DNA of 39,923 nucleotides from a virus, in IMG/VR virus record IMGVR_UViG_3300015175_000005, positions 1-39,923 of that record; one strand, written 5' to 3'. Below, one piece after another: positions 208 to 37,513 of the stretch. Positions within the stretch are counted from its first letter, which is position 1. Each line of letters starts with the position of its first letter. The notes beneath the pieces were generated by a model. That model had not been told where the DNA came from and did not search any database. It saw only the letters and a list, made by a program, of their open reading frames with translations. The position numbers and the translations under genes were made by a program.

Positions 208-1428
208 ATGGCCAGCAGGGCGAGAAACAGGAGGACCGGAGGATCCGGAAGCGTGTTCCAGGACTCCAAAGGACGATGGCATTTCCGCAAGGACATGGGA
301 ACCGACCCGACGACCGGACGCCGCCGTCCGCCGATCGAGGCCACGGGCATGGTGAAAAGCGAGGCGCGCGCCCGCTTCCAGGCGAAGATCGCCGAATGGG
401 AGCGGGACGGAAGACTGCCCAGCAAGGACGGCCCCAAGACCGCCGACTACTTCGAACGGTGGATGGATGAGCACCGCGCGGCCATCAACCCCACCACATG
501 GCGCAACGAATCCAGCTGGATGCGCACCATGAATGCCATCATCGGCGACATACGCCTCAACCGGCTCACCGCCAACGACATCAACGTCATGTGCAGACGA
601 CTGCGCCGCACACGCAAAGGCAGGACCATCAACACCTACCTCGCGATCCTCGGGGCCATGCTCCGAACCGCGAAACGGAACGGACTCATCGCATGCAACC
701 CCATGGAAGACGTCAGACGGATGCCGGAGGACCGATACGAACGCCCCATCCTCGACGACGCCGACCCCGCGAAGGTGATCGAGGCGGCGCTCGCCGACCC
801 GGGACGCATGGCGGCCGCGTTCGACGGTCCGGACGAACGCGAGAAATGGGCCCTCATGTTCGAACTCGCCTTCACCACGGGCATGCGGCCGGGCGAGCGG
901 TACGGCCTGATGCCCTACCAGCTGGAACTGCATCACGGCGTGCCGACCATCAACGTGTGCCAGCAGGCCAAACCGATACCGTCCAACGCCACGATCCCGG
1001 ACTGGATGGTCGCCGAACACCTGGACGGGGTGATCTGGCTGACCAAACCGAAGACCACCAAAGGCATACGCACGGTCCCCATCCCGCAGGGCCTTTGGGA
1101 CCGGCTCTGGGCCCACATCGTCAAATGGGGCATACCGCCGCACGGCCTCGTGTTCACCAACCTCTACGGGCGGCCCGTCAGACGGGACAACGAGGAGAAA
1201 CGATGGCGGCGCGCCCTGCAGGCCGCTGGACTCCCATACGTGGACATCTACAGCGCCCGCCACTGGCTCGCCACCGAACTCGCGGCCGCCGGAGCGAACG
1301 ACGAGCAGCGCACCGCCATCATGGGCCACACCGACATCCACACCACCAGCGTGTACACGCATTGGCGGGAACAGGCGCTCGCCAAGACGCTCGACGCCGC
1401 CCTGCCAGACCTCCGCGACGTCCAGTGA
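208..1428 (+). CDS. int: Tyrosine recombinase / phage integrase
   Basis: 406-aa ORF with a GGGAGGA RBS upstream of the ATG. C-terminal catalytic pattern ARHWLATE ... GHTDIHTTSVYTHW (R..H-x-x-R..Y type). Adjacent to the att repeat. Confidence 0.95.
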   Translation: MASRARNRRTGGSGSVFQDSKGRWHFRKDMGTDPTTGRRRPPIEATGMVKSEARARFQAKIAEWERDGRLPSKDGPKTADYFERWMDEHRAAINPTTWRNESSWMRTMNAIIGDIRLNRLTANDINVMCRRLRRTRKGRTINTYLAILGAMLRTAKRNGLIACNPMEDVRRMPEDRYERPILDDADPAKVIEAALADPGRMAAAFDGPDEREKWALMFELAFTTGMRPGERYGLMPYQLELHHGVPTINVCQQAKPIPSNATIPDWMVAEHLDGVIWLTKPKTTKGIRTVPIPQGLWDRLWAHIVKWGIPPHGLVFTNLYGRPVRRDNEEKRWRRALQAAGLPYVDIYSARHWLATELAAAGANDEQRTAIMGHTDIHTTSVYTHWREQALAKTLDAALPDLRDVQ

Positions 1429-1516: not shown

Positions 1517-2065
1517 GTGGACGATGAGCATGAGGACGTTGATGGAATCGATGCGGCGCGGAGCGGCGGCCGGAACAAGGATAGCGGTGACGAGACACGT
1601 GGAGTACAGGTCGCCGATTCAGGTGAAGTCGGCCTCGGAACTCCAGACGGCAGCGTGGAACAGGGTCGGTCGGACGCTCCGGGAGTCGATGAAACGGGAG
1701 AAGGCGTCCGACAGGTAGCCGTCCAATGGCGCTCCGCCCCACTGCCGACCGTCGACGAGTTCGCAGGCTACGAACGAATCCAGCCGGGAGCCGCGGACAG
1801 GATCATCACCATGGCCGAGAAATCACTCGACGCGGAGATCGAAGCTCAAAGAACATCGAATGAGGTTGCGGCCGACGACCATAAAGCGCAGAACATCTGC
1901 ATGATCATCGCCACTACCGCCTATTCGATTCTCCCATACGCCGGATTCGGAAGCGCGATCGCCTGCGCCGCGTTCGGACAACCGGTGGCCGCCACCCTCG
2001 GTGCACTCATCGGAGCCGTCACGGCCGGACCACAAATAATCCAGGAAATCAGGAAAAAGAGATAA
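1517..2065 (+). CDS. DUF2335-like membrane protein (moron)
   Basis: GTG start after AAGGAGG (1506-1512). Motif PLPTVDEFAGYERIQPGAADRIITMAEK is typical of the DUF2335 pattern. Two C-terminal hydrophobic helices and an acidic N-terminus. Confidence 0.8.
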   Translation: MDDEHEDVDGIDAARSGGRNKDSGDETRGVQVADSGEVGLGTPDGSVEQGRSDAPGVDETGEGVRQVAVQWRSAPLPTVDEFAGYERIQPGAADRIITMAEKSLDAEIEAQRTSNEVAADDHKAQNICMIIATTAYSILPYAGFGSAIACAAFGQPVAATLGALIGAVTAGPQIIQEIRKKR

Positions 2066-2074
2066 CAACAAATA

Positions 2075-2116
2075 CCCTGGCGCTCGCGGTATGCGGGTGG
2101 CCGGGGTCATTTTTTA
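2075..2116. terminator. Putative bidirectional terminator between convergent genes
   Basis: CCCTGGC (2075-2081) pairs with GCCGGGG (2100-2106) including one G-U, followed by TCATTTTTTA. Sits between the 1517..2065 (+) and 2180..3742 (-) genes. Confidence 0.45.
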
Positions 2117-2159
2117 TAAGGAATCCGAACGGGTATAAGGCTCTATAAGCACGTATAAA
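2115..2159. repeat. Phased TATAAG/TATAAA array
   Basis: TATAAG at 2115, 2134 and 2144, and TATAAA at 2154 (spacings 19, 10, 10), in an AT-rich patch downstream of both convergent genes. Confidence 0.5.
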
Positions 2160-2179: not shown

Positions 2180-3742
2180 TTATCGTGAACCTGCATCATC
2201 GTCCGATGGAAGATCGACGGAGACCTTCACTTGACCATCGCTTTTTTCGATGGTTGCGGAGGTGACTTTCGTCTCGGATCCGAATGGATTGGTGTTCGTC
2301 GGCAGTGCCACGGTGCCTAGGACGGTTCCGCTTAGACGGATTACCAGGACGTCTGCCGATGGTTTCACAGTCACCCAGACATGCGATTGGTCCTCGAATT
2401 GGTCGAGGATCTCGTCAAGTCCGTCCACCGGCTCGATGCGTACTGTCCTGCCGATGGGGGTGAGCACCTTCTTGTGAGGTTTCGCATTTGAGAACATGAC
2501 GCTCTTCACGTTGGAGAATTGCTTTTTCGGGCTCGGCGTGACGGGTTTCGGCTTCCTTGGCTTCTCTGTCTTCGGAGACTCCATGCCTTGGCGGGTGAGC
2601 TCCATCGGGTCGTGTTCCTCCGGCATCTGCAGGCGTAGCTGCCATATGTGTCGATCCTTGTCCTTCACCCTGTCCGGGACATGGGCGAGCATCACGGCAC
2701 CCTCGGGAGGTACCTGACCACAGTGACGCTCCATCTGGTATTTGCTTATATATCCGATTTCCTCGCCGTCGAGAAACACCCAGTACGTGGGGTATCCTGC
2801 ATACTTGCCCTTCCGTATCCGGTCTTCCATGACATAGACCCAGACCCATGCGTCGTATCCGTATCTTTTCAGGATCCGCTGGTGATCCTCGTCTCCGGAG
2901 ATCTCCACGCCGCACTCTATGGTCTCGATCATGACGCCATCCGGCTTCGCGTTGACCGCGCTTGGCATCTCGCCGCCGAGATAAGCGCTCTTCATGAAGA
3001 AGGAGTCCTTGCGGCGCCTGTCGCGGAGCGCCCGCCGCTTCGATTCGTCCCTCTCGGTTTGCGTGAGCGTCCTCGGGGTGTACATGACCTCCAGCCGGCG
3101 CCAGCATTCGAGAGTCCACCGGGCGTCGGACAGGGCGCGATGCTCCTCGGTGACCTGCATGCCAAGCAGCCGCATGGTCTCCTGCAGGCTTGCCGATGGT
3201 GCGTTTGGGAACTTCGCCATTGCCAACGACATCGTATCGATGCAGGTCGTGTCAAGACAATCGATGCCGAGTCGTGACGCTTCCTTGTTCAACGCGGAAA
3301 TGTCATAGCTGATGTTATGGCCGATCAGTGTGAGGTTCGAGATGGCTGCGAGGAATTCGGGGATTACCTGTTCCGCGTTCGGCTGGGACAGCAAGGACTC
3401 TTCGGTGATTCCGGTCAAAAGCGTTGCCGACGCCGGCAGGTCGCATTCGGGGGAGATAAGTTGCTCCCATTCGCAGGTCGGCACGTTGTTCCTTATCAGG
3501 ATTGCGCCGATATCGATGACACGTGTCCCGGAAGGGGAACTTATCGTTTCCGTGTCGATGACGACGGCATCGGCGATGGCGGCGTTCATTCTGAACTCGG
3601 CGAACGAATCCAGACCGTCATCGCCCGCATGCGATTCTCCGGACAATCCACTTTCCACAGGTACGGACGATTGTCCCTTGTCCTTCTTCGATACGGCGTA
3701 GGCGATGGCCGCAACGGCAACGATGACTATGACCAGCGTCAT
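2180..3742 (-). CDS. Membrane-anchored DEDDh (DnaQ-like) 3'-5' exonuclease with an uncharacterised C-terminal half of about 290 aa
   Basis: N-terminal TM helix MTLVIVIVAVAAIAYAV followed by KKDK. ExoI VVIDTETIS (D63, E65), ExoII LIGHNISYDISAL, ExoIII HRALSDARW. Its start overlaps the stop of the upstream ImmA-like gene (ATGA). Confidence 0.85.
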   Translation of the reverse strand: MTLVIVIVAVAAIAYAVSKKDKGQSSVPVESGLSGESHAGDDGLDSFAEFRMNAAIADAVVIDTETISSPSGTRVIDIGAILIRNNVPTCEWEQLISPECDLPASATLLTGITEESLLSQPNAEQVIPEFLAAISNLTLIGHNISYDISALNKEASRLGIDCLDTTCIDTMSLAMAKFPNAPSASLQETMRLLGMQVTEEHRALSDARWTLECWRRLEVMYTPRTLTQTERDESKRRALRDRRRKDSFFMKSAYLGGEMPSAVNAKPDGVMIETIECGVEISGDEDHQRILKRYGYDAWVWVYVMEDRIRKGKYAGYPTYWVFLDGEEIGYISKYQMERHCGQVPPEGAVMLAHVPDRVKDKDRHIWQLRLQMPEEHDPMELTRQGMESPKTEKPRKPKPVTPSPKKQFSNVKSVMFSNAKPHKKVLTPIGRTVRIEPVDGLDEILDQFEDQSHVWVTVKPSADVLVIRLSGTVLGTVALPTNTNPFGSETKVTSATIEKSDGQVKVSVDLPSDDDAGSR

Positions 3743-4131
3743 TCCACTATCCTTTCTCCATAAGCCGTCGTGACACGAGAAGCCAACAGCGACTTGTAAT
3801 CCTCCACAACCTGCACCGTCACGCCAAGCTCACACGCGATGAGATAAGAGTCCCCGTCGTACAGTCGTTCGGCGGTCGCATATTCGACGGGGCCCACGAG
3901 CCATAACGCGGTCTCCTTGCGGGTGCGCTGTTCCGCTTTTGTTCCGATGATTCCGCATCCAGGGTCATGGTGTCTCGCATGCACGAGCTCATGGCAGAGC
4001 GTGCACATCTTCTGATGGTCAAGCAGTCGATTGTCAACGATGATGAGCCGCAACGTATCACAGTACAGTCCACACAACCCGCGACCCAGGCTGCGTTCCT
4101 CCACGCGCACGTCCATCGACTCCGCCTCCAT
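3739..4131 (-). CDS. ImmA/IrrE-family (COG2856-like) zinc metalloprotease
   Basis: 130-aa ORF with an HExxH motif (CHELVHARHHD) in the usual ImmA context. Its stop overlaps the start of the exonuclease gene. Confidence 0.8.
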   Translation of the reverse strand: MEAESMDVRVEERSLGRGLCGLYCDTLRLIIVDNRLLDHQKMCTLCHELVHARHHDPGCGIIGTKAEQRTRKETALWLVGPVEYATAERLYDGDSYLIACELGVTVQVVEDYKSLLASRVTTAYGERIVE

Positions 4132-4151
4132 CAGAAGCCCGTCATAACTGT

Positions 4152-4310
4152 CTATCGGCCCTCACCGCCGTTCATCTCGATTTCCTTATTCGGATCCCTG
4201 TTGGCGGCCACGTCATAGTCCTCGGGGTGCGCGGCGATACGGTCGATGAGATCATCGGTGATCTGGGATTCGCGCTCGCGGGCCTCGTAGACGCGGGCGG
4301 CTTTTAAGGT
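4152..4310 (-). pseudogene. 5'-truncated ORF remnant (no usable start codon) upstream of the ImmA-like gene
   Basis: Open minus-strand frame ...KAARVYEARERESQITDDLIDRIAAHPEDYDVAANRDPNKEIEMNGGEGR*, with its stop at 4152-4154. There is no ATG/GTG/TTG upstream of the GC/AT junction near 4300. The coding-like GC-rich part ends exactly at that junction. Confidence 0.35.
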
Positions 4311-4311
4311 A

Positions 4312-4347
4312 GAGTCCCGACATTCATTGAGCTGTACATCGGGACTC
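4312..4347 (-). terminator. Stem-loop immediately downstream of the nuclease gene
   Basis: GAGTCCCGA (4312-4320) and TCGGGACTC (4339-4347) form a 9-bp perfect stem with an 18-nt loop, with no strong U-tract. Possible attenuator or processing site. Confidence 0.4.
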
Positions 4348-4369
4348 GAACTATTTTCAAATGATGCTG

Positions 4370-5461
4370 TTATAGAAGGCGTCGCACCTCTTCGCGAATC
4401 CGCTCGGAATATGCGTAGATGCCATTAAGCGTATCGATGGGCATGCGCTCGCAGTTCTTGTTCTCGCCGAAAACACCGAGATATTTCTGCTTGGTGTTGA
4501 AGTAGAGGCGAGCAATCGGTTTTCGATTGTTGTCATCGAGGAAGATGGCGCAGTATTTCTTCGCGTCTCTCATGGTCACCCGTTCCGGATCCACATCGCT
4601 GCATGCGATGGCTTTGATGATTCGGTAACCTGCGATTTCCTCCTCGGTGGTGACGATTCCATCGTCCTCGTTGTCATCGGATTCGTTCTCGACGTTTGCT
4701 TCCTCGTCTGCGTAGTCCGGTTCGGCTGTGCCGGCCTTGATGTCATCGGCTCCGAGGGCTGTCTTGAGTCGGTCGTTGACCTGGTCGGAGAGGAATTGTT
4801 TAAGCGCCTTGCCGACCAATGGCCTGAATTTTTCCATGACGGAAGCATAGAAGGAACCATCATACACATGGCTGGCGAGCAGTTTTACAAATTCATCGGA
4901 CGGGCTCTTGAATTCCTCTCCAATGGCTCTCTTGAGTGCGCCCACGTATTTGAGCTCTTCGGCACTGCTGGCGATGGAATCAAGGTCGAATGCCGGCTTG
5001 GTCAGCTTCTGCAACGCCGGGATTATCGTCGGGTCGATATCCAATAGATCCAGCACTAGGAACGGCTTCGAATCCATGCGGTTCGGCTCATCGATGTCCA
5101 TGTAGAAATTCCATACCTGCCCGTTGGTCAGAACGCCGATGCGCGCGTTCGTGACGGCGAAGTAGCGGTACAGTTGACTTGCGTTCTCCAAGCTGAGCGG
5201 TACGCCGATCTTCTTGCATTCGATAAGAATCTGCACTTGATCGTCATGCACGAGCGCGTAATCGACTTTCTCGCCTTTTTTGACTCCAACGTCGGCGGTG
5301 AATTCCGGCACGACCTCGGTTGGATTGAATACGTCATAACCGAGTACTTGGCCGATGAACGGCATGATGAACGCGTTCTTCGTGGCTTCCTCTGTTTCGA
5401 TGCCCTCTTTGAGGTCGCGTACCTTCGCGGCGACTTGGTTAAGGCTCTCCTCGAACTCCAT
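4370..5461 (-). CDS. HsdR-N-terminal-type PD-(D/E)xK nuclease-fold protein
   Basis: 363 aa, with an AAGGGAG RBS. The N-terminus EEATKNAFIMPFIGQVLGYD...KVDYALVHDDQVQILIECKK gives a D-x13-E-x-K motif as in HSDR_N-type domains. There is an acidic linker and a C-terminal domain (TTEEEIAGYRIIKAI...). Only 15 nt downstream of the repressor stop. Low GC. Confidence 0.8.
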   Translation of the reverse strand: MEFEESLNQVAAKVRDLKEGIETEEATKNAFIMPFIGQVLGYDVFNPTEVVPEFTADVGVKKGEKVDYALVHDDQVQILIECKKIGVPLSLENASQLYRYFAVTNARIGVLTNGQVWNFYMDIDEPNRMDSKPFLVLDLLDIDPTIIPALQKLTKPAFDLDSIASSAEELKYVGALKRAIGEEFKSPSDEFVKLLASHVYDGSFYASVMEKFRPLVGKALKQFLSDQVNDRLKTALGADDIKAGTAEPDYADEEANVENESDDNEDDGIVTTEEEIAGYRIIKAIACSDVDPERVTMRDAKKYCAIFLDDNNRKPIARLYFNTKQKYLGVFGENKNCERMPIDTLNGIYAYSERIREEVRRLL

Positions 5462-5476: not shown

Positions 5477-5824
5477 TTATTTGGTTTTGATGGATTCTTC
5501 GATTTTGATGCGGTCGGCCCACTTGTCGATGTCGACGTCCTCGTGCGATGCCTCGAAATCGCCTATGATATCCGGGTCCTTGCTGAGTCCATCCGCGTCG
5601 GCGATGATCTGCGACAGCGGCATCTTCAAGGCGTCCGCGATCCGGTGCAGCTGCTCATAGTCGGCAACGGTGTTCAAATCAAATATCTTGCGTAGTGTGC
5701 TATATGGCACATTTGATTTCTCGGCTAATGCTGGGCCTTTAATTTCTCTTGTTGCCATCGCCCGTTTGATTGCTATCGATAATGCCTTTGATTCGATAGT
5801 CGGGATTTTCTTTCCTGTTGCCAT
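5477..5824 (-). CDS. CI-like XRE-family HTH repressor (no S24 peptidase domain)
   Basis: 115 aa with HTH ALAEKSNVPYSTLRKIF. Divergent from a Cro-like gene across an 82-bp AT-rich region. Confidence 0.85.
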   Translation of the reverse strand: MATGKKIPTIESKALSIAIKRAMATREIKGPALAEKSNVPYSTLRKIFDLNTVADYEQLHRIADALKMPLSQIIADADGLSKDPDIIGDFEASHEDVDIDKWADRIKIEESIKTK

Positions 5825-5880
5825 AGTTAGAACTTTAGACCCAATTGGGATATAGATAACTCATATGGGACACGCCGAAG

Positions 5881-5908
5881 TTGACATAGGTCATATATAA
5901 CATAATAT
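5881..5908 (+). promoter_or_regulatory. Putative rightward early promoter (PR-like), possibly giving a leaderless cro transcript
   Basis: TTGACA (5881-5886), 16-nt spacer, TAATAT (5903-5908). The -10 overlaps ATG 5907, and a second in-frame ATG lies at 5916. Flanked by TCATATGGGA (5861), TCATATATAA (5891) and TCTATATGGGA (5911) operator-like repeats. Confidence 0.5.
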
Positions 5909-6152
5909 GTTCTATATGGGAACAAATAAGCTCGATTCACAATATCTCGGAAAAGCGATGAAGTCTGCAATAAAGCATGCTGGGCTCACGCAGGATGAAG
6001 CCGGCATCAAGGCCGGCATTCCACGCAACAGTCTCAACCGCAAACTCAACGGCGGAACATTCAACTTCGACGAGCTTACCCGCATCAGCCAAGTCGCCGG
6101 ACGCAAGCTCTCCGACATCATCAAAGACGCCGAAGCGCTCGCCGACGCATGA
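5907..6152 (+). CDS. Cro-like XRE-family HTH regulator
   Basis: 81 aa (78 aa if started at ATG 5916) with HTH GLTQDEAGIKAGIPRNSLNRKL. Divergent from the repressor. Confidence 0.8.
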   Translation: MFYMGTNKLDSQYLGKAMKSAIKHAGLTQDEAGIKAGIPRNSLNRKLNGGTFNFDELTRISQVAGRKLSDIIKDAEALADA

Positions 6153-6174
6153 ATCGAAAGGAGAATCCGAAATA

Positions 6175-6474
6175 ATGACTACCAAGAAAACGATGATTAC
6201 CGAAATCGATCTTTATGAGTTGACGGACAAACAGTCTCAAGCGCTCGTCGAACTGCTCGGGGAGGATCCACTGGAGATGGGCGCTCTCGATGTGCAACCG
6301 ATTCACGTGGTGTATTCGCCAGGACAAGATCTCACTGTGGTCAGGTACATGAAAATGCGGCAGATCAAAGGCAATCAACTCGGCCATATCCTCGGCATCA
6401 CGACCGGTGGTACGGAGGGACCGGTTTCATCACGAAGAAACGATGGGATAGATCGTCGGGAAGAGCCCAGGTGA
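6175..6474 (+). CDS. Hypothetical early protein
   Basis: ATG 6175 preceded by AAAGGAGAA. This is the internal start of the 5977..6474 ORF. The last 77 nt overlap the convergent 6398..6934 gene. Confidence 0.55.
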   Translation: MTTKKTMITEIDLYELTDKQSQALVELLGEDPLEMGALDVQPIHVVYSPGQDLTVVRYMKMRQIKGNQLGHILGITTGGTEGPVSSRRNDGIDRREEPR

Positions 6475-6958: not shown

Positions 6959-7756
6959 ATGAACAACGAAATCCAACGGTTCGATTTCAGGGGCGCATCA
7001 TTGCGCACCTTGGCCGATGAGGCGGGGGAGCCTTGGTTCGTCGCCAAGGACGTATGCGACATCCTCGAACTGAACAACATCACAGAAGCTCTTCGCCCTC
7101 TTGATGACGATGAGAAGACCAACTTCAGAAATTCTGAAGTTGCTCAGAGTGGTGGTCGTGCGCCTCTCATCATCTCTGAGCCAGGCCTGTACAAGCTCAT
7201 CATGCGCTCGCGGAAGCCGGAGGCCAAGGAATTCCAACGTTGGGTGACTCATGAGGTGCTTCCCCAGATTCGCAAAACCGGCGGCTACATCCCCACCACA
7301 GACGCGGATGATGACATGACCATCCTCGCGAAGGCCGTGATGATCGGCCAGCGCACCATGGAAGCGCAGAAGCAGAAGATCGCCGAACAGCAGACGCGCA
7401 TCGTGGAACTGGAGCCGAAAGCGCGGTTCGCGGACGCCGTGGCCGCGTCCGACGGCACGTGCCTGGTCGGCGAGTTGGCGAAGATGCTCCGGCAGAACGG
7501 GATGGACATCGGCCAGAACCGGCTGTTCCGTCTTCTTCAGGCTGACGGGTATCTCGGCAAGTCCGGCTCGAATCGCAACGTGCCGACACAGCGTGCGATG
7601 GACCTCGGCCTGTTCCGCATCAAGGAGACCACCGTCACCCATGCGGACGGGCACACCACGGTCAGCCGCACTCCGAAGGTCACGGGCAAGGGGCAGCGCT
7701 ATTTCATCGACCGGCACTGGGGTCGCGCTCAGCCGTCGTTGGAAGCGGGTGCGTGA
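6959..7756 (+). CDS. Phage antirepressor (BRO-N plus KilAC/ANT domains)
   Basis: TAAGGAGAA RBS. The N-terminus FDFRGASLRTLADEAGEPWFVAKDVCDILEL is a BRO-N pattern. The C-terminal half (ARFADAVAASDGTCLVGELAKML...) is KilAC-like. Confidence 0.9.
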   Translation: MNNEIQRFDFRGASLRTLADEAGEPWFVAKDVCDILELNNITEALRPLDDDEKTNFRNSEVAQSGGRAPLIISEPGLYKLIMRSRKPEAKEFQRWVTHEVLPQIRKTGGYIPTTDADDDMTILAKAVMIGQRTMEAQKQKIAEQQTRIVELEPKARFADAVAASDGTCLVGELAKMLRQNGMDIGQNRLFRLLQADGYLGKSGSNRNVPTQRAMDLGLFRIKETTVTHADGHTTVSRTPKVTGKGQRYFIDRHWGRAQPSLEAGA

Positions 7757-19633: not shown

Positions 19634-20905
19634 GTGATGGATGGCGGTGCGAACCGGACCCCGAATCGCAGGCAGATCGGCGAACTGCGGCAGGCGCAGT
19701 CTCAGGCGTCAGCCTTGGCTAAACGGGAGCTGGGCAGGGTCTGGAGCGAGATCGGCGACTGGGAGCCGGAACAGCAGCGCGACGCGCTGCTCGAACTGGT
19801 GCCAGCGATCATCGACAAATACGCCGACACATCCAGCGTCGCGGCCGCCGAATGGTACCAGCGCGTGCGCGACAAGTGGATCTCCGACGATTTCAAAGCA
19901 CGCACGCCGGTAAAGGCGAACGATGACATCAGCAAGCTGATCCGCGCGAACGCCGGCGTCCTGTTCGGCGACGGCGCGGACCCGGGGCGGATGCTCCGCT
20001 TCCTCAACGCCGTCGTGGACAAGGGCGTGAAGCAGGGAGGCCGCGACACTATCCGCTACAACGCGAAACGCGATCCGAAGAAACCGCGCTACGCGCGAGT
20101 CCCGTCCGGCGCTAAGACGTGCGCGTTCTGCGCGATGCTCGCGTCCCGCGGCTGGGTGTACGAATCAGCCGAGACAGCCGGCGCGATGAGCAAATACCAT
20201 CCTGACTGCGACTGCGAGATCGTACCCAGCTGGGACAAGGACAAGCCGAACGTCGAAGGCTACGACCCCGAAAAGCTCTATGAGGACTATGAGAAGGCTT
20301 ACAAGGCCGCGGGCGGCAATCCCACAATGGAAGACGTTCTCGCGGCAATGCGGAGCCAGCCGGGGAAGTACACGGATGGCAGGCTGGTGCCTGTGAAGGT
20401 TCCGAAGGATTGGAAGCAGCCGCACGCTCAGAACGAGGATCGTCTGCTTTCGATGAAGGGATTGGCGGATGTCACCGATGCGGAATGGTATCGGCGTCAG
20501 GAACGGGCCGGGGTTCCGCATTCGGTGGATACGCTTTACCCGCAGGAGATCGTGTTCCTCGAACGTTTCCGGAATCTCGGCAACCATGTCGAATGGATAC
20601 CAAGAGACAAGGAGAACGCAACGGCGACAAACGACTTCCGCTGGATTGAAATGAACGAATTGTGCGAATTGAAATCCATGGCGAAAGCAGATTTCGGCAA
20701 GATTGCAGACCGCATCACCAAGGCCGTTCGAAGCGCCAAGGAGAATCACGATGTCGTCAAGGACTGTTTCGTCATAGACCTCGGCCAGGCGAAGCGTAAG
20801 GACAAACTCGTGCACCAATTGGAGAAATACAACGACCGCGAATGGAAAATCCGCAGGCTTTTCATCTTCGACGGTGAAGGGTTCTCGGAAATCAAATTGA
20901 AATAA
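19634..20905 (+). CDS. MuF-like minor head protein fused to a C-terminal PD-(D/E)xK nuclease-toxin-like domain
   Basis: The actinophage MuF hallmark KTCAFCAMLASRGWVY...YHPDCDCEIVP is followed by a low-GC extension of about 165 aa containing FLERF...NDFRWIEMNELCELKS (E...D-x10-E-x-K). Confidence 0.88.
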   Translation: MMDGGANRTPNRRQIGELRQAQSQASALAKRELGRVWSEIGDWEPEQQRDALLELVPAIIDKYADTSSVAAAEWYQRVRDKWISDDFKARTPVKANDDISKLIRANAGVLFGDGADPGRMLRFLNAVVDKGVKQGGRDTIRYNAKRDPKKPRYARVPSGAKTCAFCAMLASRGWVYESAETAGAMSKYHPDCDCEIVPSWDKDKPNVEGYDPEKLYEDYEKAYKAAGGNPTMEDVLAAMRSQPGKYTDGRLVPVKVPKDWKQPHAQNEDRLLSMKGLADVTDAEWYRRQERAGVPHSVDTLYPQEIVFLERFRNLGNHVEWIPRDKENATATNDFRWIEMNELCELKSMAKADFGKIADRITKAVRSAKENHDVVKDCFVIDLGQAKRKDKLVHQLEKYNDREWKIRRLFIFDGEGFSEIKLK

Positions 20906-20991
20906 AACAACCGGGAGCACCCCTCCGCTCATTGCGTGTTATTTCAACGCCGCAGAGGACCCCCGGTCTTTCTATATCCTATCACGCTTTT

Positions 20992-21073
20992 GGTGGGTTG
21001 GCCCAGCGGCGACGGCAGGAGCCTGTAAATCTCCGACATCGACACATCGCGGGTTCGAGTCCCGCACCCACCA
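20992..21073 (+). tRNA. tRNA-Tyr (anticodon GTA), class II architecture
   Basis: Acceptor GGTGGGT/ACCCACC. Anticodon loop CTGTAAA (GTA at 21025-21027) with U33 and A37. 14-nt variable region. T-arm GCGGG-TTCGAGT-CCCGC. The layout parallels E. coli tRNA-Tyr. Caveats: C31:U39 mismatch, weak variable-arm pairing, no encoded CCA. Confidence 0.75.
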
Positions 21074-32974: not shown

Positions 32975-35900
32975 ATGTCCTCTCACGTGGAATTGAATCC
33001 AGACGATTCGACGCTCGGCCTGAGCCTGGGCATGAAGGCCATGCGCCTCGCCCTGACCCAGAAGACCCACAAGATGGGCACCGTGCGCATCCCCGGCACG
33101 GGCGGCACGGACGTCATCATCGGCGCCGGCGCGTCCGATGGCGTCAACCGCGTGGACAAGGACGGCGTCCAACTGCCGTTGGTGGACACGAGCGGCATCG
33201 ACAAGGCCGCCAAGGACGCGCAGCAGAAGGCGGACGCCGCGGCTGCGAAGGCGGACGAGGCGATCGCCAAGGGCGAGCAGATTAGGCAGGACGCGCAGGC
33301 GGGCATCGACGACGCGCGCAAGCAGGCGCAGGCGGTCGAAGCCAAGGCCGACAAGGTCCGAACCGATCTCACCCAGCAGGTTCAAAACGTTAAGTCCGAA
33401 ATGGATTTGGCAGTTGAAGCTGCCCAGACATCCGCCAATAAGGCCCAGTCCGCAGCAGATGCAGCCCGGAAGGCGGCTGACAAAGCCAATGCGTCTACAG
33501 TAGATCTTGATAAATCAGTCCAAGCAGTCGATGCGAAGGCCATTGCGGCGAAACAGGCCGCAGCCGAGGCCCAGTCCAAGGCCGAGAACGTCGCATCGGA
33601 TCTCGATTCCGCGAATGCGGTCATCGAACAGCACACCACGGAACTCGGAACCCTTACGACGAAGGTCTCCAATGCCGGCACCAAATCCGACAGCGCCCTG
33701 AGTGTCTCCACGGAGGCCAAGCAGACTGCGACCGAGGCATCGACTACGGCATCTTCCGCATACAAGGATTCGCAGACCGCTCTTACCCAGAGCACCACTG
33801 CGACACAAACGGCAACCACCGCAAAGACCACTGCCGAATCGGCAAGCAAGACCGCAAGCGATTCGCTTAAGCAGTCTTCCGCAGCAGTGCAGACGGCCAA
33901 TCAGATCAGTACGACTCTGAAGACCGAGTATCAGACCAAGGCGGATGCCGATAAGATCTATGCGACCCAGTCGAGTCTGAAACAGACTTCGGATTCCATC
34001 ACGGCTTCCGTATCAAAGACATATGCCACGAAGGACGCATTGTCCGCCCTCCAGAACGTCGCAGATAATGCCATCGAATCCTGGCGAGGAACCGGTGTCC
34101 CGACACTGACGAACAAGCCGGCTTCGGACTGGACCACAAACGCCGATAAGAAGAAGCACTCCGGTGATCTTTATTATGACAAATCAACCGGTAAGGCATA
34201 TCGTTTCGGTTCTGATGGCGTGACATATACTTGGGAGCTGAATCAGGATACTGATGTCACCAAGGCATTGGCGGATGCATCCAAGGCACAGACTTCCGCG
34301 AATAATGCCCAGGCGTCCGCAACGGCAGCGAACACTGCTGCCGGTAAGGCCCAATCGACGGCAAATACCGCAGTCAGCAATGCGGCCACCGCGAAGAACG
34401 CAGCCGATGCCGCGCAATCCAGTGCGAACAAGGCTCAGAGTGATGTCGATAAGCTGAAGATCGATATTCCCGAGACCTATGCGACCAAGAGCTCTCTGAC
34501 CCAGACCGCCGAATCCATCACCGCAAATGTAGAATCCGTTAGGACAACCGCAAACAGTGCCGTGACGGCCGCATCGAAGGCACAGCAGACCGCCGATGGT
34601 ATTTCCGCAAATCTGTCAAAGAATTATCAGACGAAATCCCAGGCAGATACGATATATGCAACCAAGGCGAGTCTGAAGGCGACTTCCGAGAGTATTTCCG
34701 CCGAAGTCACCAAAGCGCAGGGAACCGCCGATGGTGCCGTGACAGCTGCATCGAAGGCACAGCAGACCGCTGATGCCGTCACTCTGAATCTGTCAAAGAA
34801 TTACCAGACGAAAGCACAGAACGATGCCGTGTACGCAACCCAGACAAGTCTGAAGGCGACTTCGGATTCGCTCAGCGCGAGTATTACGGCAAATGCGAGG
34901 ACCGCACAAAGCGCTGTTGACAAGGCGACAAGTCTCGAAGCGAACCTTAATGGTTTTAAGACTACTGTCGCTGAAACATATCAGACTAAATCTGGAATGT
35001 CTGCTTACGCAACCAACAGTTCCCTTACCCAGACTGCGAATTCCATTAAAGCTCAGGTCACTGAAGTCTCCAAGACCGCAAACGGTGCAATGTCCAAAGC
35101 CACTACAGTGGAACAGACTGCCAATGGCCTTAGCAGTAAGATCACCGAACAGGGTAAGACACTCAATGCGACCGTCAAGACCGCGAACGAAGCAAAGAGC
35201 ACCGCTGACAGCAATAAGACCACTATCAGTCAGGTAAGCACTACAGCCAGTAATGCGTTGTCTAAAGCCTCCACGGTGGAACAGAATCTCAACGGTTTCA
35301 AGACCAGCGTAAGTCAGACGTATGGACGCGGTTCGAATCTCTGGGTCAATCCGACGTTTGATGCTGATAAGCCCCAGATCACCTCTCGGGTGAATAACGT
35401 AACTGCGCCGAATGGGAGCGGAGTAAATCTGCTCGCAAGTCGTGACCATTACAATTCCGCCACCAGTTTTCCTGTGGTTCCGGGCCATACGTATGTGGTG
35501 ACCGCTCATGTCAAGCGATTAGAGGGAGATCTACCGCTGACGGCCGGTATCTGGTACACCGCACAGACCGGCGGAACTTGCTGGGACTCGATAACGTCAT
35601 GCGAATCAACGTCAAGCCTGAGTGATGGATGGATGGCCGCGACATGGCGTTTCACCTGTCCGGATGGAAAATCCAGAGGATGCGTGTTGTTCCATCTTGA
35701 GCAGTGGAAATCTTCGACACAGTGGTATGTGGCGAACGTCGTATGCGTCGATGTGACTGGATTGCAGCCGTCCGGCGACTACGCGACGAACAGCAGCCTG
35801 TCGCAGACGGCGAACAGCATCAAGGCGCAGGTGTCGGAGGTCGCGAAGACCGCTTCCGGGGCGATGAACAAGGCGTCCTCGGTGGAGCAGACCGCTTCGG

Positions 35901-37513
35901 GTCTTTCGACCAAGATCACCGAACAGGCCAAGACCCTCGATGCGACTGTCAAGACCGCGAACGAGGCAAAGAGCACTGCCGACTCGAACAAGCGGACCAT
36001 CTCACAGGTCGCATCCACCGCTGACGGCGCTGTAAGCCGCGTAAGCTCTCTGGAACAGAATCTCAACGGGTTCAAGACCAGCGTGGCGAAGACCTACCAG
36101 ACCAAGGGGGACTATCCGACCAAAGCCGAGGTGCAGTCCAGGATCGACCAGTCGGCCTCCTCGATCAAATCGACGGTCGGCCAGACCTACACGACTCTCG
36201 ATGCGACCGAGGCGTTGAGGAAGAGCGCGACCCGTATGTTCACGCTGTACGGCGCGTCGGGCAGTCCGAAATGGGTCAAGCTCGGCTATCTCACCAGCAA
36301 CGGCGACTCGTCGAGCGTCCTCCTGCACGTCTACTCCGGCGACGGCTACAACGGCGCTGCCCGCCAGAACGCGGAGTTCGAGATCTTCGTCAAGGACGGC
36401 TGGCAGTCGTCCGCGTCCGCGTCGGGCGCGTTCGGCGTGAGCGTGAACCGTATCCGCAACGCGGATGACGTGAAGGTCAAGGTGCTCGCGTTCGACGATC
36501 GGAGTTGCGACATCTGGGCGTACCTGCCGTGGGCCTGGTGGAACGGGCACTACACGCTGCAGGGCGACTACAAGGCGTGGCAGGACGGCCCAAACTGCGG
36601 CGGCGTGAATGTACAGGACAATGAGCCCACGAACAGCGTCGCGCAGGACCTCGCGTACGACACGCTCAGCACGCGCAGCTACGTCGACCAGACCAGCAAG
36701 TCGGTGGCCTTGGGCGTGGTGCAGAATTACCGTGGCGCGGACGGTTCGGGACTGGCCACGAAAAGCGACATCACCGCGAGCGAGAGGAGCATCACCAGCA
36801 CCGTCGCAGGCACTTACGCCACCAAGAGCGGCGTCACGCAGGAGATCTCGTCGAAGATCACCCAGAACAACAACAGCCTGGACGTGAAGTTCGCAACCAA
36901 GACCGAGACCAAGACCGCGCAGGCCACGGCGAACACAGCCAAGTCCGACGCTTCCGACGCCCAATCGCGCGTCGGTGTTCTGGAGGACTGCATCAGGCTC
37001 ACATCCGAAGGCGTGCGCGCCGGCCACCAGAAAAACGGGGTGTTCAACGGCATGAGCGCCCTCGTGAACACCGACGGAAGTTTCGACCTGCTGGACAAGG
37101 ACGGCAACCTGCTCACGCGCATCGACCGGCACAGTTTGCAGGTGGCCGGTGACGATGGGGCCGGTTCAGGGCATTTGATCCTGTCGCAGGACGGTCTCGA
37201 CATCACCGTGCAGCCTACGGCGAACAGGGCGGTCGCCTATCATATCCGGCTCGGCGCGGAAGGCATCAGCATCACCGCGCCTGACGGGACGCATGTCGAA
37301 TGCTCGGCCCGGACCGGTCTGGATCTGGAGACGGTGAGATACGGCAAACTGGCCATCGGCCCTGGCGGCTTGCAGTTCACGAACGACCAGGGATGGGGCT
37401 TGGCCCTCTCCGCCGTCGGCTGGAGCCTGAAATGGGCGGGGAACCACCGGCTCGCCACCGGTCCGACGGCGGGCAAGCTCTACATCGACGGACACGAGAT
37501 CGTCACCAAATAA
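32975..37513 (+). CDS. Tail fibre / receptor-binding protein (1512 aa), repeat-rich
   Basis: ATG 32975 after GGAGGTGG. Long Ala/Thr/Ser/Gln-rich periodic coiled-coil-like repeats. An internal beta-rich CBM-like insert (about 35330-35760) and a globular C-terminal region. Confidence 0.9.
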   Translation: MSSHVELNPDDSTLGLSLGMKAMRLALTQKTHKMGTVRIPGTGGTDVIIGAGASDGVNRVDKDGVQLPLVDTSGIDKAAKDAQQKADAAAAKADEAIAKGEQIRQDAQAGIDDARKQAQAVEAKADKVRTDLTQQVQNVKSEMDLAVEAAQTSANKAQSAADAARKAADKANASTVDLDKSVQAVDAKAIAAKQAAAEAQSKAENVASDLDSANAVIEQHTTELGTLTTKVSNAGTKSDSALSVSTEAKQTATEASTTASSAYKDSQTALTQSTTATQTATTAKTTAESASKTASDSLKQSSAAVQTANQISTTLKTEYQTKADADKIYATQSSLKQTSDSITASVSKTYATKDALSALQNVADNAIESWRGTGVPTLTNKPASDWTTNADKKKHSGDLYYDKSTGKAYRFGSDGVTYTWELNQDTDVTKALADASKAQTSANNAQASATAANTAAGKAQSTANTAVSNAATAKNAADAAQSSANKAQSDVDKLKIDIPETYATKSSLTQTAESITANVESVRTTANSAVTAASKAQQTADGISANLSKNYQTKSQADTIYATKASLKATSESISAEVTKAQGTADGAVTAASKAQQTADAVTLNLSKNYQTKAQNDAVYATQTSLKATSDSLSASITANARTAQSAVDKATSLEANLNGFKTTVAETYQTKSGMSAYATNSSLTQTANSIKAQVTEVSKTANGAMSKATTVEQTANGLSSKITEQGKTLNATVKTANEAKSTADSNKTTISQVSTTASNALSKASTVEQNLNGFKTSVSQTYGRGSNLWVNPTFDADKPQITSRVNNVTAPNGSGVNLLASRDHYNSATSFPVVPGHTYVVTAHVKRLEGDLPLTAGIWYTAQTGGTCWDSITSCESTSSLSDGWMAATWRFTCPDGKSRGCVLFHLEQWKSSTQWYVANVVCVDVTGLQPSGDYATNSSLSQTANSIKAQVSEVAKTASGAMNKASSVEQTASGLSTKITEQAKTLDATVKTANEAKSTADSNKRTISQVASTADGAVSRVSSLEQNLNGFKTSVAKTYQTKGDYPTKAEVQSRIDQSASSIKSTVGQTYTTLDATEALRKSATRMFTLYGASGSPKWVKLGYLTSNGDSSSVLLHVYSGDGYNGAARQNAEFEIFVKDGWQSSASASGAFGVSVNRIRNADDVKVKVLAFDDRSCDIWAYLPWAWWNGHYTLQGDYKAWQDGPNCGGVNVQDNEPTNSVAQDLAYDTLSTRSYVDQTSKSVALGVVQNYRGADGSGLATKSDITASERSITSTVAGTYATKSGVTQEISSKITQNNNSLDVKFATKTETKTAQATANTAKSDASDAQSRVGVLEDCIRLTSEGVRAGHQKNGVFNGMSALVNTDGSFDLLDKDGNLLTRIDRHSLQVAGDDGAGSGHLILSQDGLDITVQPTANRAVAYHIRLGAEGISITAPDGTHVECSARTGLDLETVRYGKLAIGPGGLQFTNDQGWGLALSAVGWSLKWAGNHRLATGPTAGKLYIDGHEIVTK
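35021..35323 (+). repeat. Diverged 303-nt in-frame duplication, copy 1 (low GC)
   Basis: Encodes SLTQTANSIKAQVTEVSKTANGAMSKATTVEQTANGLSSKITEQGKTLNATVKTANEAKSTADSNKTTISQV...NLNGFKTSVSQTY. Confidence 0.85.
35795..36097 (+). repeat. Diverged 303-nt in-frame duplication, copy 2 (high GC)
   Basis: Encodes SLSQTANSIKAQVSEVAKTASGAMNKASSVEQTASGLSTKITEQAKTLDATVKTANEAKSTADSNKRTISQV...NLNGFKTSVAKTY. Confidence 0.85.

Follow-up and report, generated by a model that had tools for sequence, protein, structure and literature searches.

Does a 4-nt overlap between the gene of an ImmA-like metalloprotease and that of a nuclease mean that the two proteins work as a pair? This question is raised by a Bifidobacterium prophage of 39,923 nt (IMG/VR record IMGVR_UViG_3300015175_000005), which is called the window here. 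Near one end of the window, the gene of a 130-aa protease ends inside the start codon of a gene for a 520-aa protein with a DnaQ-type exonuclease domain. An earlier reading of the letters (hereafter the sequence-only reading) proposed that the two genes could encode a protease-gated, membrane-tethered nuclease effector for defense or exclusion. The pairing turns out not to be conserved. To a different explanation we give an even chance: the 520-aa protein would be an independent cargo gene ("moron") of the lysogeny operon, encoding a membrane-tethered 3'-5' exonuclease that destroys incoming linear DNA. The two genes and the parts of the 520-aa protein are as follows.

2180..3742, minus strand: 520-aa exonuclease gene (Pfam RNase_T, E 2.9e-23)
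3739..4131, minus strand: gene for the 130-aa ImmA/IrrE-like Peptidase_M78 zinc metalloprotease (Pfam, PHROG 87), with HELVH codons at 3979-3993
3739..3742, minus strand: ATGA start/stop overlap of the ImmA and exonuclease genes, read in the sequence
3689..3739, minus strand: predicted N-out/C-in membrane anchor, residues 2-18 (TLVIVIVAVAAIAYAVS), from hydropathy and charge
3083..3571, minus strand: DnaQ/PolC-type DEDDh 3'-5' exonuclease domain, residues 58-220 (Pfam, PHROG and PDB sequence matches; AlphaFold predicted local distance difference test, pLDDT, 85-96)
2960..3067, minus strand: Arg/Lys-rich helical linker, residues 226-261 (helix 228-255 in the full-length model, low confidence)
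2588..2959, minus strand: dom1, residues 262-385, β-rich (AlphaFold, profile search)
2501..2587, minus strand: Lys/Pro-rich variable linker, residues 386-414 (13% identity to distant homologs; pLDDT <50)
2207..2500, minus strand: dom2, residues 415-512, a second, more divergent copy of the dom1 fold (hhalign; pLDDT ~75-86 in the full-length model)

The 520-aa protein is therefore built, from its N terminus, of an anchor, a DEDDh exonuclease, a helical linker, dom1, a Lys/Pro-rich linker and dom2, and both open reading frames (ORFs) named by the sequence-only reading are present on the minus strand. The catalytic core is complete, as that reading had claimed. The RNase_T match (PF00929; 83.7 bits, cut-off 24) extends over residues 60-212 and profile positions 1-162 of 164, and an exonuclease family, PHROG 192, is matched at E 1.3e-38. 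Among solved structures, the PolC-type exonuclease 2p1j is the best relative (E 3.7e-19), and the motifs align to it residue for residue: DTET, HNISYD and HRALSD correspond to DFET, HNANFD and HRALDD. Exo I is represented by D63/E65, Exo II by D147 and Exo III by H201/D206, and all of these residues, as well as H142 and N143, are invariant in 14 homologs down to 51% identity. Other PDB sequence matches of this domain are 8h18, the DinG exonuclease and Cas2-DEDDh. The deoxydinucleotidases (diDNase/NrnC; PMC11706625), considered for comparison, belong to another DEDD subfamily. The active site is intact by sequence, and 3'-5' activity is predicted.

The N-terminal transmembrane helix is likewise borne out as a prediction. 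Residues 1-19 have a mean Kyte-Doolittle hydropathy of 2.24, the highest 19-residue mean in the protein, and the hydrophobic segment has no charge before it and KKDK after it. By the positive-inside rule, the protein is predicted to be anchored N-out/C-in, with the enzyme in the cytoplasm. The helix is kept, with conservative substitutions, in homologs at least 71% identical. N-terminal transmembrane segments are found in ~23 of ~50 full-length family representatives, whereas ~7 carry an MGLLSWLFG-type N terminus and one combines DUF4236 with a transmembrane segment. Membrane association thus appears to recur in the family, although the N termini are unrelated in sequence. The MGLLSWLFG(K/R)-type N terminus is seen in members P0116-P0120, P0125, P0127, P0164, P0175, P0178, P0240, P0242 and P0243, which differ in their central domains; it may be an amphipathic membrane-binding motif or another targeting motif.

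The protein has 153 homologs at E <= 0.001, the listed ones being 51-100% identical, and every named homolog is from Bifidobacterium. Proteins 99-100% identical to it occur on >100 metagenomic and genomic contigs, with individual variants each seen on roughly 100-130 assembled contigs, and one cluster at 99% identity bears the name "3'-5' exonuclease [Bifidobacterium pseudocatenulatum]".

What is the C-terminal half of this protein? The sequence-only reading could not assign its ~290 residues, and residues 226-520 matched nothing in Pfam, NCBIfam, PADLOC or the PDB sequences. (A Lys-rich match of this half to an rRNA-processing protein was discarded as spurious.) The two segments with a similar beta-like pattern that had been noticed there are true homologous repeats. 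When compared by hhalign, the dom1 and dom2 profiles match with a probability of 99.0% (E 5.6e-18), and hidden Markov models (HMMs) of the two find each other reciprocally within the 520-aa protein. These results indicate a genuine tandem duplication of one β-rich domain, which by these comparisons appears to be previously undescribed. An AlphaFold model of dom1 built on a 46-sequence alignment (pLDDT 96.1, predicted template-modeling score 0.89) has six strands and two to three helices. This domain model was used in place of the full-length model, which was built on 14 close sequences and in which the pLDDT of dom1 is <50. Identity to distant homologs is 73% in dom1, 56% in the catalytic domain, 49% in the Arg/Lys-rich linker and 13% in the Lys/Pro-rich linker.

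The dom1 family is small. An exhaustive profile search of 1.84 billion representative proteins yielded only 64 representatives, and all named members are from Bifidobacterium. The diverse dom1 alignment holds no conserved 7-10-mer; related loci were gathered with a closer alignment, and distant loci are under-sampled. Among 185,579 species-representative genomes, a scan with two conserved peptide patterns, by which divergent members could be missed, gave 15 loci, all in Bifidobacteriaceae. The viral-contig loci are IMG/VR contigs, several of ~30-48 kb. RNase_T immediately precedes dom1 in 35 of the 51 representatives scanned, and others have different exonuclease-type matches. In five of the 51, the exonuclease position is occupied by Pfam HIRAN (P0167, P0177 and P0188 were confirmed individually, and P0182 and P0185 were assigned by the same sequence layout). 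Each of the five starts with a transmembrane helix at the extreme N terminus, in the style of the window protein. The window protein thus belongs to a modular group in which a membrane tether is followed by a DNA-end module, either exonuclease or HIRAN, and then by dom1. Short variants (322-379 aa, no transmembrane segment) carry one repeat, without dom2, and are chromosomal.

The presence of HIRAN domains in relatives bears on the nature of dom1 itself. Membership of dom1 in the HIRAN family, guessed from the pattern "vxvxGexxhQ ... vxLDGxxiGyl", was unsupported by Pfam, hhalign and Foldseek and has been kept as a resemblance. The top PDB folds found with Foldseek include the HIRAN domain of HLTF in four of the first five ranks, with weak scores (E 0.16-0.87, template-modeling score 0.29-0.36). 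Pfam HIRAN (PF08797) matched dom1 in none of 46 members at E <= 1, and hhalign against genuine HIRAN domains of related proteins gave a probability of only 8.8%. Moreover, dom1 found no match among PDB sequences, whereas a control HIRAN alignment does match HLTF. The HIRAN 3'-end pocket motif N-x-[YF]-D-x-N-A is absent from the dom1 and dom2 alignments but present in the HIRAN domains of relatives. On the models, dom1 may be called HIRAN-like at most. Another structural match was found among predicted viral structures (BFVD), where the C terminus of Propionibacterium phage E6 gp33 aligns to dom1 at E 1.3e-4 (TMq 0.60). By sequence the two are not significantly related (HMM E 0.56), and only the structural match was used.

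Phage E6 gp33 (L052 24101-25699) is annotated "DNA binding domain protein" and has two transmembrane segments, a Pfam HIRAN match (E 2e-10) and the dom1-like fold. Its gene directly follows an XRE gene and is divergent from a pair of helix-turn-helix (HTH) and antirepressor genes, in what looks like a second immunity-like region.

Is the protease a dedicated partner of this nuclease? The 130-aa protein is an HExxH protein of the ImmA type, in agreement with the sequence-only reading: it matches Pfam Peptidase_M78 above threshold (E 2.5e-5; 24.5 bits, gathering cut-off 22) over 118 of 123 profile positions, it matches PHROG 87 "metallo-protease" at E 1.6e-12, and its HELVH occupies residues 47-51. 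The HExxH motif is kept in all of the 20+ ImmA homologs found. The ATGA overlap is also real, with the TGA stop codon of ImmA falling within ATGA in GTGGAATGACGCTG and a Shine-Dalgarno-like run, GGAGAAAGG, just upstream. Relatives L020-L033 and B. biavatii L006 share this overlap. Overlaps of 4 nt are very common in compact operons. The overlap therefore points to co-transcription and possible coupling, and by itself would not establish a functional pair.

If the two genes formed a dedicated defense or abortive-infection system, the protease might sense infection and activate or release the tethered nuclease, for example by cleaving the nuclease or an inhibitor. COG2856 proteases do occur in three-component toxin-antitoxin-like modules. 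Such a pair should travel together, and this was examined in 50+ related loci, in which all ORFs were scanned with an iterated ImmA profile (jackhmmer). The loci were grouped by exonuclease divergence into ~13 lineages. Identities below are pairwise to the window exonuclease, except that the value for L040 is that of the best tblastn segment and covers the C-terminal half only; ImmA is called absent when none lies within 5-8 kb (to the limit of the fetched flank or of the contig).

Lineage a, window clade, 90-100%: XRE155-ImmA-exo
Lineage b, L027-L032 and L005, 74-78%: ImmA-exo (in L005, Abi_2-ImmA-exo)
Lineage c, B. biavatii, 50%: 146aa-ImmA-exo-integrase
Lineage d, L036, 50%: XRE113-exo-ImmA
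Lineage e, L039, 47%: rep158-277aa-exo-ImmA
Lineage f, L037, 49%: HTH125-exo-Fic-ImmA
Lineage g, L056/57, 47%: rep112-exo-SNIPE-ImmA-like
Lineage h, B. dentium L003, 72%: rep115-exo-DUF3800, no ImmA
Lineage i, L004, 58%: no ImmA
Lineage j, L040, about 58%: rep121-exo-integrase, no ImmA
Lineage k, L053, 53%: rep120-exo, two other RNase_T genes, Abi_2 and integrase, no ImmA
Lineage l, L055, 54%: 114aa-exo-DUF2335-integrase, no ImmA
Lineage m, B. goeldii, 56%: outside a prophage, Abi_2-85aa-exo with HipA genes nearby, no ImmA

The ImmA gene lies directly upstream of the exonuclease gene in three lineages, directly downstream in two, and apart from it by a Fic or SNIPE gene in two more; in the remaining six it is absent. 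Conversely, the lysogeny modules of phages Bbif-1, PMBT6 and ctl617 contain ImmA-like genes without the exonuclease, and the cargo beside ImmA is a lipoprotein gene in PMBT6 and a RhuM-family gene in ctl617. Where exonucleases are all 47-50% identical to that of the window, ImmA identities range from 36% to 63%. Because the divergence of ImmA does not follow that of the exonuclease, the two genes do not appear to have co-evolved. Conserved co-occurrence of protease and effector, as in an XRE-COG2856-toxin module, was thus not found across the ~13 lineages, and the proposal of a protease-gated pair in the sequence-only reading is not supported.

Some observations would fit a dedicated pair nonetheless. 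The ATGA overlap is kept in both the window clade and B. biavatii, although the exonuclease of the latter is only 50% and its ImmA 36% identical. In L036 and L039 the ImmA gene is directly adjacent, if downstream, and the window has lost the cognate XRE gene that preceded ImmA, so that ImmA adjoins only the nuclease gene. Against these stand the lineages without ImmA, the varying gene order, the solitary ImmA genes and the lack of co-divergence. In addition, the operon is always headed by an XRE gene, and a PADLOC search with ImmA gave no match. Taken together, these findings make a dedicated two-gene system very improbable.

Most likely, the protease is an ordinary anti-repressor of the ImmR/ImmA type, that is, the induction switch of the prophage, and the two genes share an operon and an overlap only through a common compact module. 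Regulation of prophages by ImmAR-type systems has been described (PMC12637031). As in ICEBs1 and phi105, the Peptidase_M78 HExxH protein of the window is encoded co-directionally with and downstream of an XRE repressor gene, in an integrase-proximal operon, and in close relatives an XRE gene (XRE155) directly precedes ImmA. The window differs in that its adjacent XRE gene is a 3' remnant, directly upstream of ImmA, whereas a different, 115-aa XRE gene lies 1.3 kb upstream in the same operon with a nuclease-like gene. Also, proteases of the window type are minimal (125-130 aa), and repressor cleavage by them is putative.

The exonuclease gene follows an XRE repressor-like gene, 0-2 genes downstream of it, in 12 of the ~13 lineages, with a divergent cro-like gene and usually an integrase gene nearby; homologs of the 115-aa repressor directly precede the exonuclease gene in L003 and L040. 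All loci can be accommodated by the order immR - [cargo slot] - immA - [cargo slot] - ... - int, where either slot may carry the exonuclease as cargo. In relatives, this slot or island holds known and candidate defense genes: Abi_2 (L002, L005, L053), Fic (L037, L048), DUF3800 (L003, L004), HipA (L002), GmrSD with SocA (L048), SNIPE (PF13250 + T5orf172 + MUG113; L056, L057) and an HSDR_N-like nuclease (window, L011). The exonuclease occupies the integrase-repressor region, which the sequence-only reading named as a known site of defense genes in temperate actinophages, and because of the defense-type genes in that slot a role in defense or exclusion is plausible. That reading therefore survives in part: an intact, probably membrane-tethered nuclease in a lysogeny module stands, whereas gating by the protease is unsupported.

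In L056 (2010-5310) and L057 (1911-5211), the order is rep112, exonuclease (475 aa, no transmembrane segment), SNIPE homolog and ImmA-like ORF. Two different nuclease cargo genes lie there between repressor and ImmA.

An independent cargo gene could act as follows. The N-terminal helix would anchor the protein in the membrane with its bulk in the cytoplasm, and the DEDDh exonuclease would be held at the inner membrane face. The dom1 and dom2 domains, possibly HIRAN-like, would presumably bind either DNA ends or part of the apparatus by which DNA enters. With expression in the lysogen driven by the repressor promoter, linear DNA entering through the membrane would be digested from its 3' ends; this could include the genomes of superinfecting phages and, possibly, DNA from transformation or conjugation. 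The circular chromosome would be spared, having no free ends and lying away from the entry site. In this scheme we infer the substrate, the defense phenotype, the membrane topology and lysogen expression, whereas the analysis shows the gene structure, the domains and their intact motifs, the internal repeat, and the distribution and neighborhoods of the family. In favor of the scheme are the intact and invariant motifs, the recurrent membrane association, the position in the lysogeny module, the defense-type neighbors in the slot, the independence from ImmA, the related transmembrane HIRAN architectures, the low G+C content of the region and the precedents of Mpr and SNIPE.

Several findings weigh against this explanation. 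The transmembrane helix is gone in homologs of 58% identity or less, and more distant homologs start with the short MGLLSWLFG-type N terminus in its place; the short chromosomal variants are predicted to be soluble. One short variant has a conserved place in the chromosome, between MurJ/MatE and the dcw cluster, which looks more like housekeeping than defense, and for this reason a role of the ancestral form in cellular DNA metabolism is possible. As the most conserved region, above even the catalytic domain, dom1 is not what would be expected of a fast-evolving phage-recognition domain; its conservation suggests that the ligand is invariant and not a fast-evolving phage protein. The HIRAN likeness of dom1 is statistically weak. 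The C-terminal half was found in no isolated GenBank phage (tblastn, 50,697 phage records), and PADLOC matches are confined to the generic DEDDh region, namely Cas-associated DEDDh and the N-terminal portion of the candidate PDC-S48. Finally, guilt by association in a cargo hot-spot is weak evidence, and a defense role for any family member is putative.

Might the exonuclease instead help to regulate lysogeny? As a co-regulator, it would make or remove a signal of single-stranded DNA or DNA ends for ImmA-type proteases or RecA, and so tune induction. There is precedent in pneumococcal prophages, in which accessory lysogeny-module genes beside immAR act as co-regulators of activation, and the ImmA ortholog PprI is reported to be activated by single-stranded DNA (PMC12637031). 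The exonuclease shares an operon with XRE and ImmA genes in seven of the ~13 lineages, and the strong conservation of dom1 would fit an invariant ligand such as a DNA end. However, five prophage lineages have the exonuclease with a repressor but no ImmA, and in the sixth lineage that lacks ImmA (B. goeldii) the gene is outside a prophage beside Abi_2. Short variants also occur outside prophages, some in toxin-antitoxin or restriction-type islands. Nor is it easy to see why a regulator that acts on prophage DNA would have a membrane anchor, and the neighbors are defense-type genes. We consider this role unlikely.

Names such as "DNA polymerase III epsilon" and "PolC-type" suggest yet another role, as a replication, repair or recombination accessory of phage or host that serves in proofreading or end-processing. 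The nearest solved relatives are indeed exonuclease domains of PolC, DnaQ and DinG, and NCBIfam DnaQ-type models are matched, but every NCBIfam match is far below its family cut-off. The short variant beside the dcw cluster would suit such a function, and HIRAN-type domains act in eukaryotic replication-fork repair. The gene of the window, in contrast, is located in the lysogeny operon, on the opposite strand to and far from the replication genes (single-stranded DNA-binding protein and others), and a membrane anchor is predicted for its product. It is an accessory gene of patchy distribution (the 15 loci found with two peptide patterns), and the cargo at this position is variable, Bbif-1 having no exonuclease gene there. 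A replication or repair function is accordingly quite unlikely, and the independent cargo nuclease is preferred.

Short variants were seen in further settings. The window HSDR_N-like gene is 82% identical to a chromosomal gene of B. apri (L011 4960-6162), which is itself directly upstream of a short exonuclease-dom1 gene; the B. apri pair is located between MurJ/MatE and the dcw cluster and is a second, independent adjacency of nuclease and exonuclease genes. In the B. thermophilum-type contigs L045-L047, one type of short variant occupies a conserved site beside FtsQ/MurC/MurG/FtsW, and in L048 the short variant shares its island with two Fic genes, GmrSD and SocA_Panacea. B. biavatii (L006/L050, 6347-7882 and 11201-12424) has both the prophage long variant (146aa-ImmA-exo-integrase) and a short exonuclease-dom1 gene, the latter just outside the prophage beside a Vsr gene.

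How was the cassette assembled? The remaining features of this end of the window are given here.

208..1428, plus strand: tyrosine integrase gene, marking the prophage end (Pfam Phage_integrase, E 1.8e-16)
1517..2065, plus strand: DUF2335 membrane protein gene, convergent with the exonuclease gene (Pfam DUF2335, E 1.1e-7; PHROG 3996 "membrane protein" moron)
2074..2159, no strand: conserved 86-bp element past the exonuclease stop, G+C hairpin (96.5% identity to Siphoviridae sp. ctl617)
4132-4369: 238-bp gap upstream of ImmA
4153..4295, minus strand: non-coding 3'-end remnant of an XRE (ImmR-like) gene (DNA alignment to L020)
4370..5461, minus strand: gene for a 363-aa HSDR_N-like putative endonuclease (type I R-subunit N-terminal, PD-(D/E)xK-type), same leftward operon (Pfam HSDR_N, E 8.7e-11; PHROG 4225 "endonuclease", E 9e-123)
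5477..5824, minus strand: gene for a 115-aa XRE/Cro-C1-type repressor candidate, heading the leftward operon (HTH_26, E 4.8e-4; PHROG repressor families)
5907..6152, plus strand: gene for an 81-aa Cro-like HTH protein, divergent from the repressor operon (Pfam and PHROG matches)
6959-7756, plus strand: Bro-N/ANT antirepressor gene

The gap upstream of ImmA is more than a promoter region: ~4153-4295 is near-identical to the 3' end of a 155-aa HTH gene of L020 (HTH_31/HTH_3), which precedes ImmA in close relatives. No minus-strand ORF of at least 30 aa covers 4153-4295; an 83-aa plus-strand ORF (3967..4218) overlaps the end of the remnant. Part of it (72 bp, 4185-4256) shares 98.6% identity with the 3' end of a gene of PMBT6, a phage of B. 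thermophilum, and the tail that the remnant encodes (DDLIDRIAAHPEDYDVAANRDPNK) is conserved across otherwise different repressor-like genes. The remnant looks like a recombination scar or module junction. From these alignments, the ancestral layout appears to be XRE155-ImmA-exo, the classical immR-immA arrangement, and in the window prophage the 115-aa repressor and HSDR_N-like genes seem to have replaced the 5' part of the XRE155 gene.

At the other end of the cassette, the 86-bp element at 2074-2159 has a G+C hairpin with T-runs on both strands and is a probable bidirectional terminator, common to the convergent DUF2335 gene. Overall, the region past the exonuclease stop folds no better than shuffled sequence (z -0.59), the local hairpin being the only terminator candidate. 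In ctl617 the element directly follows the ImmA-like gene, which suggests that the exonuclease gene was inserted between ImmA and the operon terminator.

Two membrane nucleases that have been studied by experiment can be compared with the 520-aa protein. The protein Mpr (multicopy phage resistance) of Mycobacterium smegmatis is a 3'-5' exonuclease anchored in the membrane; its C-terminal DUF4352 is required for defense but dispensable for catalysis, and destruction of phage DNA at the membrane has been proposed (PMC12596739). Both proteins are actinobacterial, and the anchor and exonuclease predicted here would resemble those of Mpr. However, the nuclease region of Mpr lacks similarity to known nucleases, whereas the 520-aa protein is a canonical DEDDh enzyme by sequence; Mpr is chromosomal, whereas the 520-aa gene is prophage cargo with predicted activity; and Pfam found no DUF4352 in the 520-aa protein. 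SNIPE (PD-lambda-1) of E. coli consists of an N-terminal transmembrane segment, a domain that binds DNA and the tape-measure protein, and a nuclease, and cleaves phage DNA during injection; its homologs have varied membrane-targeting N termini. The likeness lies in a single N-terminal transmembrane segment, a nuclease and an extra domain, with most of the protein predicted to lie in the cytoplasm, and both families show unrelated N-terminal modules for membrane association. A SNIPE homolog also directly adjoins the exonuclease family member in the repressor operon of L056/L057. SNIPE is nevertheless built of DUF4041 and a C-terminal GIY-YIG nuclease (T5orf172/MUG113), whereas here DEDDh follows the anchor and dom1/dom2 are C-terminal; neither SNIPE domain has a Pfam match in the 520-aa protein, and there is no sequence relationship. 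Since the domains differ, the 520-aa protein belongs to neither family, although by analogy it may work like them.

The exonuclease core has relatives among defense proteins. It matches the DEDDh model of PADLOC (E 1.1e-29), PDC-S48 (E 1.8e-25) and Cas2-DEDDh 8fy9 (E 4.4e-9). All of these are limited to the exonuclease core; PDC-S48 is matched at positions 7-171 of its 411-position profile, short of a full-length match. Cas genes do not surround the gene here, and the anchor and dom1/dom2 are not part of the PADLOC, PDC-S48 or Cas2-DEDDh models.

A further architectural parallel is provided by transmembrane HIRAN proteins, such as pneumococcal "ThaL" and E6 gp33, which also combine an N-terminal transmembrane segment, a DNA-end-related module and a C-terminal β-domain and are encoded next to the repressor. 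The Bifidobacterium proteins with transmembrane segment, HIRAN and dom1 are themselves members of the dom1 family. In the 520-aa protein, an active-looking exonuclease replaces HIRAN, and dom1 is duplicated. From this parallel we tentatively propose, as a possibility we would not yet call probable, that dom1 marks an unrecognized class of lysogeny-module proteins in Gram-positive and actinobacterial prophages. Its members would comprise a tether, DEDDh or HIRAN, and one or two dom1 copies; they would sort self from foreign DNA by place and topology, and would destroy or block incoming phage DNA, perhaps also transforming DNA, at free ends at the membrane. The Bifidobacterium exonuclease would then be the catalytic prototype, and adjacency to ImmA might couple the protein level to induction. 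What is new is the family of the duplicated dom1 domain, together with its connection to transmembrane HIRAN lysogeny proteins.

Bifidobacteria are key gut commensals and probiotics; they have yielded few phage isolates and are notorious for being difficult to transform. If the cargo explanation is true, then a membrane-located prophage nuclease could contribute to both difficulties. Membrane nucleases that tell self from non-self by location, not sequence, have only recently been shown (SNIPE, Mpr), and a DEDDh version with a new duplicated domain, which it shares with transmembrane HIRAN lysogeny proteins, would widen this principle to Gram-positive prophages. The dom1 family, small and testable, would also gain its first functional hypothesis. 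The ImmA pairing cautions against deducing a functional pair from 4-nt overlaps.

Parts of the first 8 kb of the window match Bifidobacterium phage Bbif-1 at ~91% DNA identity. The matched segments take in the integrase gene and cover 39% of the region, and the exonuclease/ImmA stretch lies outside them. The Cro-like HTH gene is preceded by a sigma70-like promoter at 5881-5908 (promoter scan, 10 of 12 matches). The G+C content of 2-6 kb is 0.50-0.59, compared with ~0.64 in most of the prophage, which is typical for acquired cargo. Similar dips (0.53-0.56 vs ~0.64) at 20001-21000 and 34001-36000 may be other acquired cargo genes. Lastly, the order exonuclease-DUF2335-integrase recurs in L055 (DUF2335 at 5866-6450), where the exonuclease is only 54% identical; the repeated order could be due to chance or could reflect a second conserved neighbor.

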